Source: Propionibacteriales bacterium (GTDB taxonomy: Bacteria; Actinomycetota; Actinomycetes; Propionibacteriales; Nocardioidaceae). Taken from it: a stretch of DNA of 64,000 nt. Every line of letters starts with the position of its first letter. Within the stretch, counting starts at the first letter, position 1. The DNA is taken from assembly GCA_026392415.1 (NCBI GenBank), contig JAPLCC010000016.1, positions 2,503 to 66,502 of the forward strand, read 5' to 3'. Below the pieces are notes generated by a model. It did not search any database, had not been told where the DNA came from, and saw only the letters and a program-made list of their open reading frames with translations. Of the stretch, positions 41,646-62,601 are shown piece after piece. Position numbers and translations under genes: made by a program.

Positions 41646-43719
41646 CCTCGGGCACGTTCTCCAGTTCGGCCAGCCAGGCAACCGCACTCGCGTCGGACGG
41701 CATCCGCCAGTCACCGCGCGGTGACATGGTGCCGCCCGCGCTGACCTTCGGACCGTTCGGCAACGCCGACCTCTTGAACTGGCTGCTGAAGAAGCGCTGG
41801 GTGAAGACCACGAGCCACCGGCGCACCGTCGCCAGGTCGTAGGACGCCCGCCGCTCCTCCGGGAATCCAGGCGGCCACTCCCCAGCGGACTGGTCGTGCC
41901 ACGCGTGCCACGCGAGGAAGGCGATCTTGCTCGGCCGGTAGCCACGCCGGATCACGTGGTAGAGCGTGAAGTCCTGGAGCGCGTACGGACCGACGGAGTC
42001 CTCGGTCGCCTGGGGCTTCTCACCGGCCGTCGCCGGGATCAGCTCGGGGGTGATCTCCTGGTCGAGGATCTCCTGCAGGACCTTGTCCGCGTCGTCGTCG
42101 TAGTGCCCGTCGTGCAGCTGGTCGGTGTCGATCACCCACCGGATCAGGTGCTGGATCAGGGTCTTCGGGACACCGGCGTTGACGTTGTAGTGCGACATCT
42201 GGTCACCGACGCCGTAGGTGCACCACCCGAGTGCGAGCTCGGACAGGTCGCCGGTGCCGAGCACGATGCCGCCGCGGTGGTTGGCCAGGCGGAACAGGTA
42301 GTCGGTGCGCAGTCCGGCCTGGACGTTCTCGAAGGTGATGTCGTAGGTCGGCTGCCCGTCGCTGTAGGGGTGATCGAGGTCGGCCAGCATCTGGGTCGCC
42401 GCCGGCTTGATGTCGAGCTCGGCGAACGTGCAGCCCAGCGCAGTCGCGAGCCGGGTCGCGTAGGACTTCGTGGTCTCGCCCGTTGCGAAGCCCGGCATGG
42501 TGAAGGCGTGGATGTCGCTGCGCGGGCGCCCCAGCCGGTCCATCGCCTTCGCGGCGACGATCAGCGCGTGGGTCGAGTCGAGACCACCGCTGACCCCGAT
42601 CACGATCTTCGGCTGCCCGATGGCCCTGAGGCGCTGCTCGAGGCCGGACACCTGGATGTTGTAGGCCTCGTAGCAGTCGAGCGCGAGCCGCTCCGCGTTG
42701 TCGGGGACGAACGGGAACCGGTCGACCTTGCGAAGCAGGCCGATGTTGCCGGCGGGCGGGTCGAGGGTGAACTCGATGGTCCGATGGCCCAGGTTGGTCG
42801 AGTAGTCCTGCGAGGAACGAGCGGGGCGTATCGAGACCCGGTTGTCGTCGAACGTCCCCTGGCGCTGGCGTTCCTGGCGCAGCCGGTCGAGGTCGACGTC
42901 GACCACCGTCCGTCGAGGGCCCTCGGGGAATCGCTCCGACTCCCCCAGCAGGTCGCCCATCTCGTAGACCATCGTCTGGCCGTCCCACGACAAGTCCGTG
43001 GTCGACTCACCCTGGCCGGCGGCCGCGTAGATGTAGGCGGCATTGCAGCGTGCGCTGGCGCTGCGAGCCAGCAGGTGCCGGTCCTCGGCGCGCGCGATGG
43101 TGATCGGACTTCCGGAGAGGTTGGCCAACAGGGTCGCGCCGGCGAGGGCCGCGTTGGCGCTCGGCGGGATCGGGACCCACATGTCCTCGCAGATCTCGAC
43201 GTGCAGCGCGAATCCCGGCACGTCGGTCGCGCGGAAGATCAGATCGTTGCCGAAGGGCACGTCCTGGCCGATCACCTCGATGACACCGTCCGACTGGGTC
43301 GCGCCCGACGCGAACCAGCGGGCCTCGTAGAACTCCCGGTAGGTCGGCAGGAACGACTTCGGAGCCACACCGAGGATCTCGCCGCGATGGATGACCACCG
43401 CACAGTTGTAGATGCGGTTGAGGCTCGAGAGCGGCGCACCCACCACGATCACCGGCAACAGGTCCCGACTCGCCTCGACGATGTCACCGATGGCCACCTG
43501 CACCGCGTCGAGGAGCACGTCCTGCAGGAACAGGTCGTCGACGGCGTACCCGGTCAGGCCCAACTCGGGGAACACCGCCACCGCCACGCCCTCGTCGTGG
43601 CAGGCCCGGGCCTGCTCGATCGTGCGGGCAGCGTTGGACGCGGGGTCGGCAAGGGCCACCGGCAGGGTGACCGCGGCAACCCGGGCGAACCCGTGGGCAT
43701 AGGCCGAGTAGAAGTCCAC
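41641..43719 (-). CDS. nadE: Glutamine-dependent NAD+ synthetase
   Basis: Nitrilase domain ([34 protein letters not shown]) and synthetase domain ([37 protein letters not shown]). Confidence 0.97.
42792..42838. repeat. REP-like unit (GTAG family) inside nadE
   Basis: ggttggtcgaGTAG-tcctgcgaggaacgagcggggc-gtatcgagacc. Translated as [17 protein letters not shown]. Confidence 0.85.
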
Positions 43720-57615: not shown

Positions 57616-60096
57616 ATGGCACGTCGTACGAAGCAGGAACCACTCCCGGAGGACTTCGAGGAGCACATCCTCGACACCGACATCGGTGACGAGATGCAGT
57701 CCTCCTTCCTGGAGTACGCCTACTCCGTCATCTACTCCCGGGCCCTGCCCGACGCGCGCGACGGACTCAAGCCGGTCCAGCGACGGATCCTCTACACGAT
57801 GAACGACATGGGCCTGCGGCCCGACCGCGGCCACTCCAAGTGCGCACGCATCGTCGGTGAAGTGATGGGTCGCCTGCACCCGCACGGCGACACGGCCATC
57901 TACGACGCCCTCGTCCGTACGGCGCAACCGTGGTCGATGCGGTTGCCGATGGTCGACGGCCACGGAAACTTCGGTTCGCCCGGCGGCGAGGACCCGCCGG
58001 CCGCCATGAGGTACACCGAGGCCCGGATGGCGCCGCCCGCGGTCGCGATGACCGACTCGATCGACGAGGACACCGTCGACTTCAAGCCCAACTACGACAG
58101 CCGCGAGTGGGAGCCGACCGTTCTCCCGTCGGCCATCCCGAACCTCGTCGTGAACGGCACCACCGGCATCGCGGTCGGCATGGCGACCAACATGGCCCCG
58201 CACAACCTGATCGAGGTCGTCCAGGCGCTGCGCCACCTGATCCAGCACCCGAAGACCGACCTCGACGGGATCATGCGGTTCATCCCGGGCCCCGACCTCC
58301 CGACCGGCGGCAAGATCGTCGGGCTCGACGGCGTGCGCGACGCCTACGAGACCGGCCGCGGCGTCTTCAAGATGCGCGCGACCGCCCGGATCGAGACGGT
58401 CGGTCGCCGCAAGGGGATCGTGGTGACCGAGCTGCCCTTCAACATCGGCACCGAGAAGGTCATGGAGCGGATCAAGGTCCTCGTCCAGACCAAGAAGATC
58501 CAGGGCATCGCCGACATGAAGGACCTCACCGACCGGTCGCACGGCCTGCGCCTGGTCATCGAGGTCAAGAACGGCTTCGTCCCCGAGGCCCTGCTCGAGC
58601 AGCTCTACAAGCAGACGCCGATGGAGGAGTCCTTCGGCATCAACAACGTCGCCCTCGTCGACGGCCAGCCGCGCACGCTGGGTCTCAAGGAGCTGCTCGA
58701 GGTCTTCCTCCAGCACCGCTACGAGGTCGTCCGGCGACGCTCGCAGTTCCGTCGCAACAAGAAGGCCGCGCGCCTGCACCTGGTCGACGGACTGCTGATC
58801 GCACTGATCGACATCGACGAGGTCATCCAGCTGATCCGCACCAGCGACGACGCGGCCGCCGCCCGCGAGCGCCTGATGAGCGTCTTCGACCTCTCCGAGG
58901 AGCAGGCCGAGTACATCCTCGGCATGGCGCTGCGCCAGCTCACCCGCTTCTCCCGGATCAACCTGGAGAAGGAGCAGGAGGAGTTGCGCAAGGAGATCGA
59001 GGAGCTGGACGCGATCCTGGCCGACGAAGGCCTGCTGAAGAAGGTGGTCTCCAACGAGCTGGCGGAGATCGCCAAGACCTTCGGTACGCCGCGTCGTACG
59101 GTCCTGCTCGAGTCGGCAGGCTCGACCGCGATCACTGCCGCCGCCGCACCGCTCGAGATCGCCGACGAGCCCTGCTTCGCGCTCCTCTCCTCGACCGGCC
59201 TGCTCGCCCGCACCACCAACGCCGAGGACATCGGCACCGGTGGTGGTCGTGCCAACCATGACGTCGTGGTCTCGGCCATCCGCACGACGGCCCGCGCCGA
59301 CATCGGCGTCCTCACCTCGACCGGGCGCCTGCTCCGGCTCGGCGTCCTGGACCTGCCGGCCATCCCGCCGTCGGCCAACGAGCCCAACCTCTCGGGCGGG
59401 CTGCCGCTCACCGAGGTGCTCGACCTCGCCCCCGGCGAGCGGGCCCTGGCGCTGACGTCGCTGGCCACCGAGGGCCCGGGACTGGCTCTCGGCACCAAGC
59501 TCGGTGTCGTGAAACGGGTCAACCCCGAGGTCATCAGCAAGGACGAGTGGGACGTCATCCGGCTCGGCGACGGTGACGAGGTCATCGGCGCCGTCGAGCT
59601 CGTCACCGGCACCGAGGAACTGTGCTTCATCACGACCGACGCACAGCTCCTGCACTACGGCGCCGCAGGCGTCCGGCCACAGGGACGCTCCGGTGGCGGC
59701 ATGGCGGGCGTCAAGCTCACCGCCGGTGAGAGCGTTGCGTGGTTCGGTGTCCTCGACCTCGCCTCCCCTGCCGTCGTGGTGACCTCCTCCGGTTCCTCGA
59801 CTGCGCTGCCCGGCACCGAGCCGGGTGCGGTGAAGGTGACCGACTTCGCCGAGTACCCCGCCAAGGGACGCGCGACCGGCGGTGTGCGCTGCCACCGGTT
59901 CCTCAAGGGCGAGGATACCCTCGTCTTCGCCTGGGCCGGTACGTCCCCGGCGCGGGCCGCTGCCGCCAGTGGAGCGCCGATCGACCTCCCTGCCGCCACC
60001 GGTCGCCGCGACGGATCCGGAGTCCCCGGCAGCCAGGCGATCGCCGCTGCTGCGGGCCCTCTCGCCGCCGTGCTGACCGATGATGTGTCAGGGTGA
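57616..60096 (+). CDS. parC: Type IIA topoisomerase A subunit, actinobacterial topoisomerase IV (ParC-like)
   Basis: RALPDARDGLKPVQRR, HPHGDTAIYD, catalytic AAMRYTEAR, GIAVGMATN, C-terminal pinwheel repeats. No adjacent B subunit, not in oriC context. Confidence 0.85.
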   Translation: MARRTKQEPLPEDFEEHILDTDIGDEMQSSFLEYAYSVIYSRALPDARDGLKPVQRRILYTMNDMGLRPDRGHSKCARIVGEVMGRLHPHGDTAIYDALVRTAQPWSMRLPMVDGHGNFGSPGGEDPPAAMRYTEARMAPPAVAMTDSIDEDTVDFKPNYDSREWEPTVLPSAIPNLVVNGTTGIAVGMATNMAPHNLIEVVQALRHLIQHPKTDLDGIMRFIPGPDLPTGGKIVGLDGVRDAYETGRGVFKMRATARIETVGRRKGIVVTELPFNIGTEKVMERIKVLVQTKKIQGIADMKDLTDRSHGLRLVIEVKNGFVPEALLEQLYKQTPMEESFGINNVALVDGQPRTLGLKELLEVFLQHRYEVVRRRSQFRRNKKAARLHLVDGLLIALIDIDEVIQLIRTSDDAAAARERLMSVFDLSEEQAEYILGMALRQLTRFSRINLEKEQEELRKEIEELDAILADEGLLKKVVSNELAEIAKTFGTPRRTVLLESAGSTAITAAAAPLEIADEPCFALLSSTGLLARTTNAEDIGTGGGRANHDVVVSAIRTTARADIGVLTSTGRLLRLGVLDLPAIPPSANEPNLSGGLPLTEVLDLAPGERALALTSLATEGPGLALGTKLGVVKRVNPEVISKDEWDVIRLGDGDEVIGAVELVTGTEELCFITTDAQLLHYGAAGVRPQGRSGGGMAGVKLTAGESVAWFGVLDLASPAVVVTSSGSSTALPGTEPGAVKVTDFAEYPAKGRATGGVRCHRFLKGEDTLVFAWAGTSPARAAAASGAPIDLPAATGRRDGSGVPGSQAIAAAAGPLAAVLTDDVSG

Positions 60097-60100
60097 TGTC

Positions 60101-60817
60101 ATGACGATCGGACGCACCCGAGTGGCTGCTGCACTGCTCACCGGCCTGTTCGCCGTGACCGGCCTCGCCGCCTGTTCGGGTGACGACGCCCCCCAGGGCG
60201 ACGACTGGAGCGACGCCGGGGTGAAGGCGAAGAAGTTCCTCGACGAGACCAGCGGCATCAGCGTGTCGATCTCGACGGGCGACGACCCCGGTGTCGACTA
60301 CCTCAAGGCAGCCACCGGCACGATCGTCGCCGACCCGCCGGCGTTCGAGGGCACGGCCGACGGCTCGGTCTCCGGCCTCCCCGTCGACGGCGTCCCGATC
60401 ATCTCGGTCGGCGGCACGATGTACATCAACCACCCGCTCCTCGGAGGCTGGAGCGACCGCTTCCAGCCCGAGGACCTCTGCGCCCCGGACCCCGCACTGC
60501 TCCTGGACCCCGACTCGGGAGTCTCCTCGGTGCTCACCAGCAGCGATGACGTCAAGGCGGGCAAGAGCGAGCGCGGCGGCAAGGACAACAAGGAGACCTT
60601 CCACACCTACACCGGAACGGCCTCCGGCGACTCGATCCGCGGGATCCTGCCGTGCGCCGAGGGCGACGACTTCGCCGCGACGTACCGCGTCGACGACGAC
60701 GGCCGTCTGCGCACCGCACGACTGACCGGGGTGTTCTTCCCCGACTCGGAGGAAGTCACCTACACCATCGACGTCACCGAGTACGACGTCGAGAAGGACA
60801 TCTCCGCACCGGAATGA
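60101..60817 (+). CDS. LppX/LprAFG-family lipoprotein
   Basis: Lipobox LAAC, LCAPDPALLLDPDSGVSSVL, coupled to a P55-like MFS gene. Confidence 0.8.
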   Translation: MTIGRTRVAAALLTGLFAVTGLAACSGDDAPQGDDWSDAGVKAKKFLDETSGISVSISTGDDPGVDYLKAATGTIVADPPAFEGTADGSVSGLPVDGVPIISVGGTMYINHPLLGGWSDRFQPEDLCAPDPALLLDPDSGVSSVLTSSDDVKAGKSERGGKDNKETFHTYTGTASGDSIRGILPCAEGDDFAATYRVDDDGRLRTARLTGVFFPDSEEVTYTIDVTEYDVEKDISAPE

Positions 60818-62601
60818 GCCGCGAACGGCTTCTCCTCGCCTTCTGCGCGGTCGCCGTCGCCTTCGCGGCGGTCGACACGTACGTCGTCGTGCTCGCCCTG
60901 CCCGACATGATGGGCGGCGTGGGCCTGGGAGGCGATCAACTCCAGCGAGCCGCACCGATCGTGTCCGGCTTCCTCCTGGGCTACGTCGCGATGCTGCCCC
61001 TCATGGGACGGATCGCCGACCTGCGGGGACAGGTGCCGGTGCTGGCGATGTCGCTGGTGCTGTTCTCCATCGGCTCGCTGGTCACGGCGGTGTCCTACGA
61101 CCTCCCGAGCATGGTGACCGGCCGCTTCCTGCAGGGCGTGGGCGGCGGCGGACTGGTGCCGGCGACGATGTCACTGGTCGCCGCTCTCTACCCGATCGAG
61201 CGCCGCGGACTCCCCCTCGGCATCGTGTCCGCAGTTCAGGAGTTCGGCAGCGTGCTGGGTCCGCTGTTCGGCGCCCTCGTGCTCTCCTTCACCTCGTGGC
61301 GCGGCATCTTCGCGATCAACCTGGCTGGCGGTGTCCTGCTCGTCGTGATCGTCGGCGCCCTGGCCCGGGGGCGCCTCGATACGTCCTCGCCTGGCGGCTC
61401 GGACTACTCGACGAACCTGGCCCTAGGCTCGTCGAGTGCCGGTCGCGAGGAACGAGCGACCGGTGTATCGAGACGCCCGCAACTCCCCGCCAGGCTCGTC
61501 ACCCTCGCCCTCCTCGCCACCACCCTCGCCGCCGGCCTGATCACCTTCCTCGAACCTGCCTCCATCCAGCGTGATCTGACCTGGGGCCAGGTCTTCATCC
61601 CGTACGTCGACGGTGGCAGCCGCTGGATCACGCCGATCGGCCTGGTCACGGTCGGGGCGTTCGTCGCCTTCCTGCTCTGCTGCTGGTTCCTGCCAAGGCC
61701 GCTGGTGGACCTCCGCGGGTGGTTCGACCACCTGCTCGCAGCCGACCTGCTCGGCGCCGGCCTGCTCGCCGCAGCGCTCGGCGGGATCGTGCTGGCGTTC
61801 GCGACCGCCGACCCGGAGGTGGCCGTCTTCTCCCCGCAGGGGCCGTGGTTCCTCACCGGGTCGGCCCTGGCCGTCGTACTCCTTCTCGTGCACCTGCGCC
61901 GCGCCGACGACCCGATCGTGCCGCGCGGTGCACTGCGGGCGATGCCGGCATGGGGTGCGCTGGTCGTCAGCTTCCTCGTCGGTTGGGCGCTGATCGCGGC
62001 GCTGGTCGACATCCCGTTGTTCGCCCGGACCACGACGCACCCGAACTCGCAGCTCGGGGCCGCGCTGGTGCTGTTGCGGTTCCTCGCCGCGCTGCCGGTC
62101 GGCGCGGTCGTCGGCGGCTGGCTGCTGCGACGGCTCAACGCCGGCGTCCTCACGGCGGTCGGCATGGCCACGGCTGGCGCCGCCTTCCTCGCCATGGCGC
62201 AGTGGGACAGGACCAGCCTCGACGGGTTCGCGTCGAACGTGCCGCTGGTGCTCGGCGGATTCGGCTTCGGCCTCGCCCTGGCGCCGGTCAACGCCGCCAT
62301 TCTCGCCAACACCGATGACGACGCCCACGGTCTTGCCAGCGCTCTTGTCGTCGTGGCCCGGATGGTCGGCATGCTGGTCGGCATCTCCGCGCTCACCACC
62401 ATCGGCCTGCGCCGCCTCTACGCCGCGCAGGCCGAGGACCCAACGCTCGACCCCCGCGATCTCGGCATTCTCCAGGAGCAGGCGGTGTTCATGGGCGCGG
62501 CGGTCGCGGCCTTCGCTGCCGCCGCCCTCGCGCTCGTGCTCTTCGCCCGAGCCGAGACCCGCGACGTGGACACTGCAGAGGTGCTTCGCAGCGCCGGATA
62601 G
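60814..62601 (+). CDS. MFS transporter, P55 / Rv1410c-like (DHA2)
   Basis: ATGA overlap with the lipoprotein gene. DTYVVVLALPDMM, QRAAPIVSGFLLGYVAMLPLMGRIADLRG, GRFLQGVGGGGLVPAT. Confidence 0.9.
   Translation: MSRERLLLAFCAVAVAFAAVDTYVVVLALPDMMGGVGLGGDQLQRAAPIVSGFLLGYVAMLPLMGRIADLRGQVPVLAMSLVLFSIGSLVTAVSYDLPSMVTGRFLQGVGGGGLVPATMSLVAALYPIERRGLPLGIVSAVQEFGSVLGPLFGALVLSFTSWRGIFAINLAGGVLLVVIVGALARGRLDTSSPGGSDYSTNLALGSSSAGREERATGVSRRPQLPARLVTLALLATTLAAGLITFLEPASIQRDLTWGQVFIPYVDGGSRWITPIGLVTVGAFVAFLLCCWFLPRPLVDLRGWFDHLLAADLLGAGLLAAALGGIVLAFATADPEVAVFSPQGPWFLTGSALAVVLLLVHLRRADDPIVPRGALRAMPAWGALVVSFLVGWALIAALVDIPLFARTTTHPNSQLGAALVLLRFLAALPVGAVVGGWLLRRLNAGVLTAVGMATAGAAFLAMAQWDRTSLDGFASNVPLVLGGFGFGLALAPVNAAILANTDDDAHGLASALVVVARMVGMLVGISALTTIGLRRLYAAQAEDPTLDPRDLGILQEQAVFMGAAVAAFAAAALALVLFARAETRDVDTAEVLRSAG
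61371..61476. repeat. Inverted REP pair (GTAG family) inside the MFS gene
   Basis: Unit 61371-61417 is 43/47 identical to intergenic unit 2254-2300. Inverted unit at 61426-61476. Frame is preserved. Confidence 0.9.

Follow-up and report, generated by a model that had tools for sequence, protein, structure and literature searches.

REPs (repetitive extragenic palindromic sequences) classically lie between genes, and palindromic repeats that create new peptide segments inside genes are known from Rickettsia. Here, we describe an inverted pair of REP units, in the following referred to as the doublet, which lies without loss of frame in the gene for a major facilitator superfamily (MFS) transporter. 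The gene is part of the window, a 64,000-nt stretch of DNA that was analyzed as a whole and whose positions serve as coordinates throughout. It comes from a metagenome-assembled freshwater genome (4.19 Mb, 69% GC, 98% complete; labeled G000, with the window at C53:2503–66502), which close protein matches place in Nocardioides. We argue that the doublet is most probably an in-frame passenger from a REP family of this genus.

The bacterial interspersed mosaic elements (BIMEs) of Escherichia coli are intergenic and have IHF, gyrase and Pol I as partners. Likewise, the REPINs (REP doublets forming hairpins) of Pseudomonas and Enterobacteria, which are associated with RAYTs (REP-associated tyrosine transposases), are described as extragenic (Bertels and Rainey, 2011; PMC3116915). 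The Rickettsia palindromic elements (RPEs), by contrast, have inserted without loss of frame into many metabolic genes that are unrelated to each other, with 44 such cases in R. conorii; they are considered selfish, are tolerated where the protein fold allows and have no known transposase (Ogata et al., 2000; summarized in PMC10969869). In a 2024 review, they are the textbook case, and Actinobacteria are not mentioned (PMC10969869). Finally, Di Nocera, De Gregorio and Rocco (2013; PMC3733652) reported intragenic GTAG/CGTC REPs and 'REP-decorated proteins' in Opitutus, Thauera, Thioalkalivibrio and others. These REPs form singletons, inverted dimers and clusters and are mostly intergenic, with a minority in frame in open reading frames (ORFs), where dimers or grouped repeats encode 20–30 residues and many hosts are repair proteins or helicases. 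Eight phyla are named in the survey, whose text mentions neither Actinobacteria nor Nocardioides. An initial reading of the window from its sequence alone had cited the Rickettsia precedent, correctly, and had set it against REPs as extragenic elements, a contrast that the 2013 survey had already overtaken.

The Nocardioides repeats resemble each of these systems in part. Like the REPs surveyed in 2013, they are short palindromes with a GTAG by the stem, and repair proteins and helicases are among their hosts (here Mfd, DinG and SNF2); unlike them, they have long conserved boxes flanking a variable hairpin, lack an accompanying tyrosine transposase and show a high in-frame share, ~15–22% of loci. 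With RPEs, they have in common that they are often in frame in unrelated functional genes (at least 26 copies), a likeness of behavior, with RPE-1 to RPE-10 considered by description only. RPEs are ~100–150 bp long, AT-richer and found in reduced intracellular genomes, whereas the Nocardioides units are 47–54 nt long, GC-rich and located in the 4.2-Mb genome of a free-living actinobacterium. We know of no sequence relationship between the two. The replacement of cassettes at a fixed site between near-identical strains, which we observe in Nocardioides, is not mentioned for RPEs (PMC10969869). As in REPINs, two inverted REPs act as one long hairpin, near-identical copies populate the genome and the occupancy of orthologous sites appears to persist; unlike in the REPIN-RAYT system, no RAYT was found, the arms belong to different subtypes (A and B) and the location is within a gene. 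Arrays of two subtypes in alternating orientation, as in E. coli BIMEs, exist in relatives such as G014, but in contrast to the intergenic BIMEs with their known partners, the Nocardioides REPs are also intragenic and no partner is known. A full-text literature search combining Nocardioides or Actinobacteria with REP terms found nothing relevant. Intragenic REPs themselves have been described, and the doublet is a variant of this known phenomenon; new are the lineage, the architecture of two boxes and a variable hairpin, the absence of a RAYT, the many in-gene copies and the cassette swap between near-identical strains.

A translated doublet in a transporter gene

The doublet occupies positions 61370–61477, i.e. 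108 nt or 36 codons, and belongs to a GTAG-tagged family. The sequence-only reading had proposed an inverted pair of GTAG-type repeats that leaves the coding frame unbroken, and this is what we find: the ORF 60652–62601, with its annotated start at 60814, is open through all 108 nt. The host gene and the parts of the doublet are:

60814–62601, plus strand: gene for an MFS transporter of 595 residues, an Rv1410c/P55-like LprG partner (Pfam MFS_1, PF07690, E = 7e-38)
61370–61419, plus strand: left REP unit, subtype A, 50 nt; 5' box GGCGCCTCGATAC, hairpin GTCCTCGCC-TGGC-GGCTCGGAC, 3' box TACTCGACGAACCTG
61420–61423, plus strand: spacer GCCC between the inverted units, 4 nt, the loop of the inner stem
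61424–61477, minus strand: right REP unit, subtype B, inverted, 54 nt; TAGGCTCGTCGAG, hairpin TGCCGGTCGC-GAGGAACGA-GCGACCGGT, then GTATCGAGACGCC

The left unit is translated as (G)RLDTSSPGGSDYSTNL and the right unit as LGSSSAGREERATGVSRR. Described in terms of its own architecture, the hairpin of the right unit is CCGGTCGC-GAGGAACGA-GCGACCGG and differs from that of the left unit. The doublet has complementary outer arms (GGGCGCCTCGATAC and GTATCGAGACGCCC; 14 nt, 93%) and inner arms (ACTCGACGAACCT and AGGCTCGTCGAGT; 13 nt, 92%), and the predicted RNA fold of the region reaches −72.7 kcal/mol (z = −4.3), equalled by none of 200 shuffles. An Rfam search of the region at a permissive threshold matched no family. 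Both units have close copies elsewhere. The stretch 61371–61417 is identical to 2254–2300 at 43 of 47 positions, exactly the figure given before, and a 32-nt core pattern matches three times in the window, with 0 matches expected from shuffles. Moreover, 45 of 45 nt of the left unit recur at G000:C22:32139 and C18:22654, and a GT87 gene at C7:169359 contains a near-identical copy of the right unit, again in frame.

In the protein, the encoded peptide corresponds to residues ~186–221, in the cytoplasmic loop between transmembrane helix 6 (TM6) and the first central linker helix. The closest PDB match of the transporter is 8pnl_A (E = 5e-66), annotated as 'putative triacylglyceride transporter', which we take to be an Rv1410 homolog. 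An AlphaFold2 model based on 65 homologs (pLDDT 86.4, pTM 0.86) places the peptide after helix 162–190, presumably TM6. The earlier placement of the peptide right after a transmembrane helix agrees with this model, and the ORF yields precisely the peptide that had been quoted. Residues 191–220 have a pLDDT of 49–54, compared to a mean of 86, and constitute the sole internal low-confidence segment; disorder is predicted for the 36 residues that the doublet encodes. In the adjoining region (61478–61740, residues ~222–309), the transporter has ~115 extra central residues compared to 8pnl, modeled as two added long helices around a conserved RDLTWGQ segment, the first of which starts directly after the REP peptide.

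Compared to the nearest relative, L045 (= P0002), dN/dS is 0.078 upstream of the insert, 0.138 downstream and 0.74 in the loop itself, at a dS of ~0.6. The low values on both sides indicate purifying selection on each half of the gene in two lineages that carry REPs, and, to judge from its sequence, the MFS gene is intact. Termination at the hairpin, which the sequence-only reading had named as an outcome that would contradict it, is not what we observe: purifying selection continues downstream, and a scan for an intrinsic terminator or promoter at the insert yielded none. The surroundings of the gene are conserved as well, with the order topoisomerase IV subunit A, LprG, MFS transporter and carbonic anhydrase kept in L045–L047. 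The stop of the lipoprotein gene overlaps the MFS start by 4 nt:

60080–60817, plus strand: LprG-like lipoprotein gene upstream of the MFS gene (Pfam LppX_LprAFG, E = 3e-22)

The Nocardioides REP family

The units follow a common plan, with a conserved 5' box GGCGTCTCGATAC, a variable GC-rich hairpin and a conserved 3' box CTACTCGACGAMCYTG; the boxes are also given as GTCTCGATAC and CTACTCGACGA. A strict pattern, GTCTCGATAC-N14-34-ACTCGACSA, matches 74–75 times in this genome, where the reversed control pattern has 0 matches, and nhmmer, seeded with both arms, detects 77 loci on 32 contigs. Conservation reaches GGC before the strict pattern and MCYTG after it, and no farther. There are several hairpin subtypes, as the stems vary among copies while their self-complementarity is kept. 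When the 3' box is reverse-complemented, it reads TCGTCGAGTAG right before the stem, both in the left unit and in the consensus of the family; such a GTAG next to the stem on the other strand is the hallmark of GTAG-type REPs. The right unit of the doublet has the variant GAGTGCC in place of the GTAG-tag box. In short GC-rich palindromes, GTAG tag and many dispersed copies, the family agrees with REPs. Some 10 further inverted doublets exist in the genome, and the window contains one further cluster, which includes the copy at 2254–2300:

2190–2336, mixed orientation: REP cluster of the same family, four units; coding signal on the left flank only

The strict pattern is present in 15 of 61 sampled Nocardioides genomes, with 0 to 206 copies each. 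The REP-richest relative is G014, where the 30 loci listed come from a few large arrays. One of them (G014:C2:483357–485039) is BIME-like, with two REP subtypes alternating in orientation at a regular period over up to ~1.7 kb; further BIME-like arrays are found at G014:C1:53847–54528 and G048:C26:231341–232045.

We also observed a sibling family, based on GTCTCGAGAC and CTCCTCGACCA, with 122 10-mer sites compared to ~4 per strand expected by chance according to our own estimate. Examples are located at C14:58476, C14:70232, C16:43261, C57:7050, C57:11456, C7:7676, C14:78266, C22:176901 and C47:33637.

In-frame copies across the genome

To call copies as in frame, we used a codon-usage model self-trained on 1381 long ORFs of this genome and demanded that both 180-nt flanks be coding on the same strand and in the same phase, with no stop in between. 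For the first family, i.e. that of the doublet, this holds for 16 of 73 evaluable loci (22%), which lie within long coding ORFs, and not for the other 57; this share far exceeds what the classical picture of extragenic REPs suggests. Besides the MFS gene, 14 of 15 host ORFs have Pfam matches and one has none. The sibling family contributes 102 evaluable clusters, 17 of which are in frame; all 10 clusters checked with Pfam are in real genes. The genome consequently holds at least 26 in-frame insertions in Pfam-verified genes, at least 25 of them besides the MFS gene. The proposal that this REP family colonizes permissive protein loops thus finds support in both families. The hosts are:

Mfd: insert between UvrB_inter and the CarD-like domain
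NadE (42790–42837 of the window, minus strand): single unit, 16-residue peptide in the linker between CN_hydrolase and NAD_synthase
CobB: insert between CbiA and GATase_3
Other first-family hosts: CobI/J-type double methylase, DinG, NuoG, thiamine pyrophosphate (TPP) enzyme, chorismate-binding enzyme
Further first-family hosts: amine oxidase-DUF1365, two acyl-CoA dehydrogenases, M20 peptidase, GT87, AAA ATPase
Sibling-family hosts: M13 peptidase, SNF2 helicase, two biotin carboxylases, ABC transporter
Further sibling-family hosts: penicillin amidase, NAPRTase-isochorismatase, YjeF/Nnr, CobQ, CobN

The first-family inserts are mostly located in interdomain linkers or loops. Aligned with REP-free orthologs from five congeners, they appear as additions of ~26 residues in the amine oxidase-DUF1365 protein and ~10 residues in NadE, and likewise in Mfd. 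The encoded peptides recur from gene to gene: RLDTxSPGGSxYSTNL, GSSSAGREERAxGVSRR and GSSSSPRGTSGRIETP in the first family, which are stop-free polar frames of the unit, and LVEEVAQQPSRD and GSRDGRGATSST in the sibling family. Five of the six reading frames of the unit are stop-free.

Individual hosts offer further observations. The amine oxidase and DUF1365 form one open frame in this genome (G000:C40:36328–38523, L042) and likewise in G014 and G003; in L042, a REP doublet sits exactly at the junction between the two and adds the ~26 residues. The ORF of the TPP enzyme, which we read as MenD-like (G000:C35:75383–78355, L038), has two in-frame inserts, a doublet at 76457–76558 and a sibling unit at 75769–75778. 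In another species, a different REP variant occupies the same position in the Mfd linker, and the NadE linker of G003 contains a possible decayed unit. At C14:50113–50160 and C59:189146–189239, same-frame coding signal on both sides is accompanied by an in-frame stop in or next to the repeat; these genes may have been truncated or split by a REP.

Turnover of the loop in relatives

The MFS loop is minimal in outgroup families and comprises 25–69 residues in Nocardioides, in the same alignment columns. About half of the 65 orthologs have a REP-type peptide in it and 33 do not, and REP-free loops are ~31 codons shorter. Loops of equal length without a repeat, the second outcome that would have told against the sequence-only reading, are not what the orthologs show: their loops of similar length also carry repeats. 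Across the orthologs, REP box motifs occur 10 times in 2.2 kb of loop DNA compared to 7 times in the 38 kb of the rest of the gene, an enrichment of ~10-fold or more. Even in the distant ortholog L068, this subtype-A unit is present, with orientation and frame as in the doublet. A sibling-type peptide also fills the loop in many other Nocardioides.

The two units of the doublet differ in their history. The right unit is identical at 49 of 49 nt to the L045 ortholog, while the flanks are 82–85% identical, and the left unit is set off from L045 by a clean 27-nt (9-codon) indel. In contigs of a relative from another metagenome (run X2), 61371–61424 (54 nt) are replaced by 3 nt, so that the left unit is absent in frame. 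Instead of the clean indel of about 35 codons that had been expected among orthologs, these two relatives show changes in the left unit. This unit, which matches other copies in the genome exactly and is missing in a relative, is likely a recent addition, and the right unit, being common to two relatives, is older; from these comparisons, the doublet looks like an old right unit with a recently added left one.

On a tree of the proteins computed without the loop, the loop types, labeled by rough peptide regular expressions, are scattered, with at least 23 label changes and sister tips that differ. We considered one ancient origin per loop type, which this tree, given these rough labels, does not support. 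The turnover is most evident in two N. aromaticivorans strains (L099 and L100), where every 60-nt block of the gene is 98–100% identical except for a cassette of ~100 nt with 40% identity; the same holds for P0002 and P0003, whose cassettes are 31% identical. A palindrome inversion or a frame variant was rejected as the source of this difference, as neither sequence is the reverse complement or a frame-shifted copy of the other. A portion of the P0011 cassette is found elsewhere in P0011's own genome.

Search for a mobilizing enzyme

A RAYT gene elsewhere in the genome had been proposed as a check. We sought it with PF01797 (RAYT, Y1 HUH, IS200-type) and found no match in this 98%-complete genome, with positive controls matched; among 61 Nocardioides genomes, there is a single match, on a 782-bp contig. 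As 'REPtron' candidates, we considered genes bracketed by REPs, namely a Ser/Thr kinase, an MBL-fold protein, SmpB and a DUF4194 protein, none of which is a transposase. The ORF of the latter (G000:C22:31197–32362), whose domain occurs in Wadjet/JetB-type proteins, contains REP units towards both its N- and C-terminal ends, is followed by more of them just past its end, and has a weak coding score of 0.19. Flanking direct repeats (k = 2–8) are no commoner than in shuffled pairings, which gives no sign of a target-site duplication, and no duplication was seen in the X2 allele that is empty of the left unit. Single units have no terminal inverted repeats and do not qualify as miniature inverted-repeat transposable elements.

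Discussion

The explanation that best accounts for these observations is, with high probability, that of a REPIN- or BIME-like doublet of a Nocardioides REP family carried in frame as a passenger. The units would be selfish or neutral repeats that are non-autonomous and copy themselves or are copied, and new units would preferentially adjoin or replace existing ones. Inside genes, selection would spare only in-frame, stop-free copies in length-tolerant loops; with only such copies surviving, the peptide would be a passenger linker. Ectopic gene conversion, template switching between hairpins or an unrecognized trans-acting protein are candidates for the mover.

Several points weigh against this explanation. 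For this metagenome-assembled genome, no RNA runs holding the sequence were found, and transcription and translation through the insert are putative. Neither a mobilizing enzyme nor a target-site duplication was found, and the term 'mobile' derives from copy identity and from presence and absence among relatives. The k = 31 Logan unitigs of the source run end inside the 45-nt exact repeat of the left unit, which leaves the original assembly as the basis for the exact join; this break is a caveat on the join and not counter-evidence to it. Lastly, an identity of 49 of 49 nt in the right unit has, by our own estimate, a chance of roughly 1e-4, and this conservation exceeds what is expected of a neutral passenger unless the copies are homogenized. 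The perfect conservation of the right unit and the repeated occupancy of the same loops may reflect homogenization by ectopic conversion or a function at the nucleic-acid level.

Such a function is at the center of the strongest alternative, in which the hairpins are kept as nucleic-acid elements and the peptide is a by-product. The roles proposed are the slowing of ribosomes between domains, mRNA processing or stabilization and a DNA site for a nucleoid or topoisomerase-type protein. We consider this alternative, and these roles with it, unlikely. The conserved right unit at a dS of ~0.6 and the strong fold (z = −4.3) speak for it, as does the recurrence of structure with changing sequence, i.e. 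different palindromes in the same MFS loop and Mfd linker among species. However, the 33 orthologs with shorter loops and no REP-like peptide imply that the hairpin is not needed at this site, identical units also occur in intergenic regions and arrays, and no Rfam family was matched. The preference of first-family inserts for domain boundaries, which also speaks for such roles, is equally predicted by purifying selection alone, and several sibling-family inserts lie inside Pfam domains.

Selection might instead act on the peptide itself, as a Ser/Thr/Gly/Pro-rich flexible linker or phosphorylation module through whose usefulness the DNA repeat spreads. The peptides are indeed hydrophilic and predicted to be disordered, and in-frame copies favor polar frames (RLDT...YSTNL, GSSS...) over Arg/Ala-rich ones. 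Yet the same DNA unit is read in both orientations and in several frames, resulting in unrelated peptides, and this multi-frame usage largely refutes the idea. Furthermore, only a minority of copies lie in frame within genes, unrelated peptides occupy the same loop in near-identical strains, and the loop dN/dS of 0.74 indicates little constraint at the protein level, which makes this alternative highly improbable.

That metagenome assembly collapsed a repeat into the gene and created the doublet as an artefact, or that the gene is a pseudogene split by the repeat, is hardly credible: the genome is metagenome-assembled, unitigs break within the repeat and the word depth in source-sample contigs over 61332–61493 rises from ~10 to ~536 at the REP, but an exact repeat of 45 nt necessarily breaks a de Bruijn graph, the unique flanks have equal depths (10.4 and 10.5), the insert length is a multiple of three with low dN/dS on both sides, and in independent assemblies of relatives (an NCBI metagenome-assembled genome, contigs from ENA and from Logan, and complete genomes), REP units occupy this codon position, likewise in frame. 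The jump in depth and the unitig ends also illustrate how such repeats fragment short-read assemblies within genes.

Going beyond the passenger doublet, one could envisage a RAYT-less REP superfamily with fixed in-frame 'landing pads' in conserved genes, where cassettes are exchanged between near-identical strains with preservation of the frame, which would imply an undescribed REP-directed mechanism of copying or replacement. We offer this idea tentatively and think it somewhat doubtful; if true, it would mean that housekeeping and transport proteins have hypervariable disordered loops.

The findings also have practical consequences. Gene callers and aligners will take the inserts for lineage-specific protein, and the hairpins break short-read assemblies inside genes. 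At the same time, the absence of a RAYT and the clean cassette swaps make for a tractable system in which to study REP movement without the usual transposase, all the more as N. aromaticivorans is cultured. In-frame palindromic repeats are usually cast as an oddity of Rickettsia; here, at least 26 of them are found in a free-living, high-GC actinobacterium, in genes that include nadE, mfd, nuoG and those of the cobalamin pathway. This points to elements of the REP type as a general origin of insertions in the loops and linkers of proteins.

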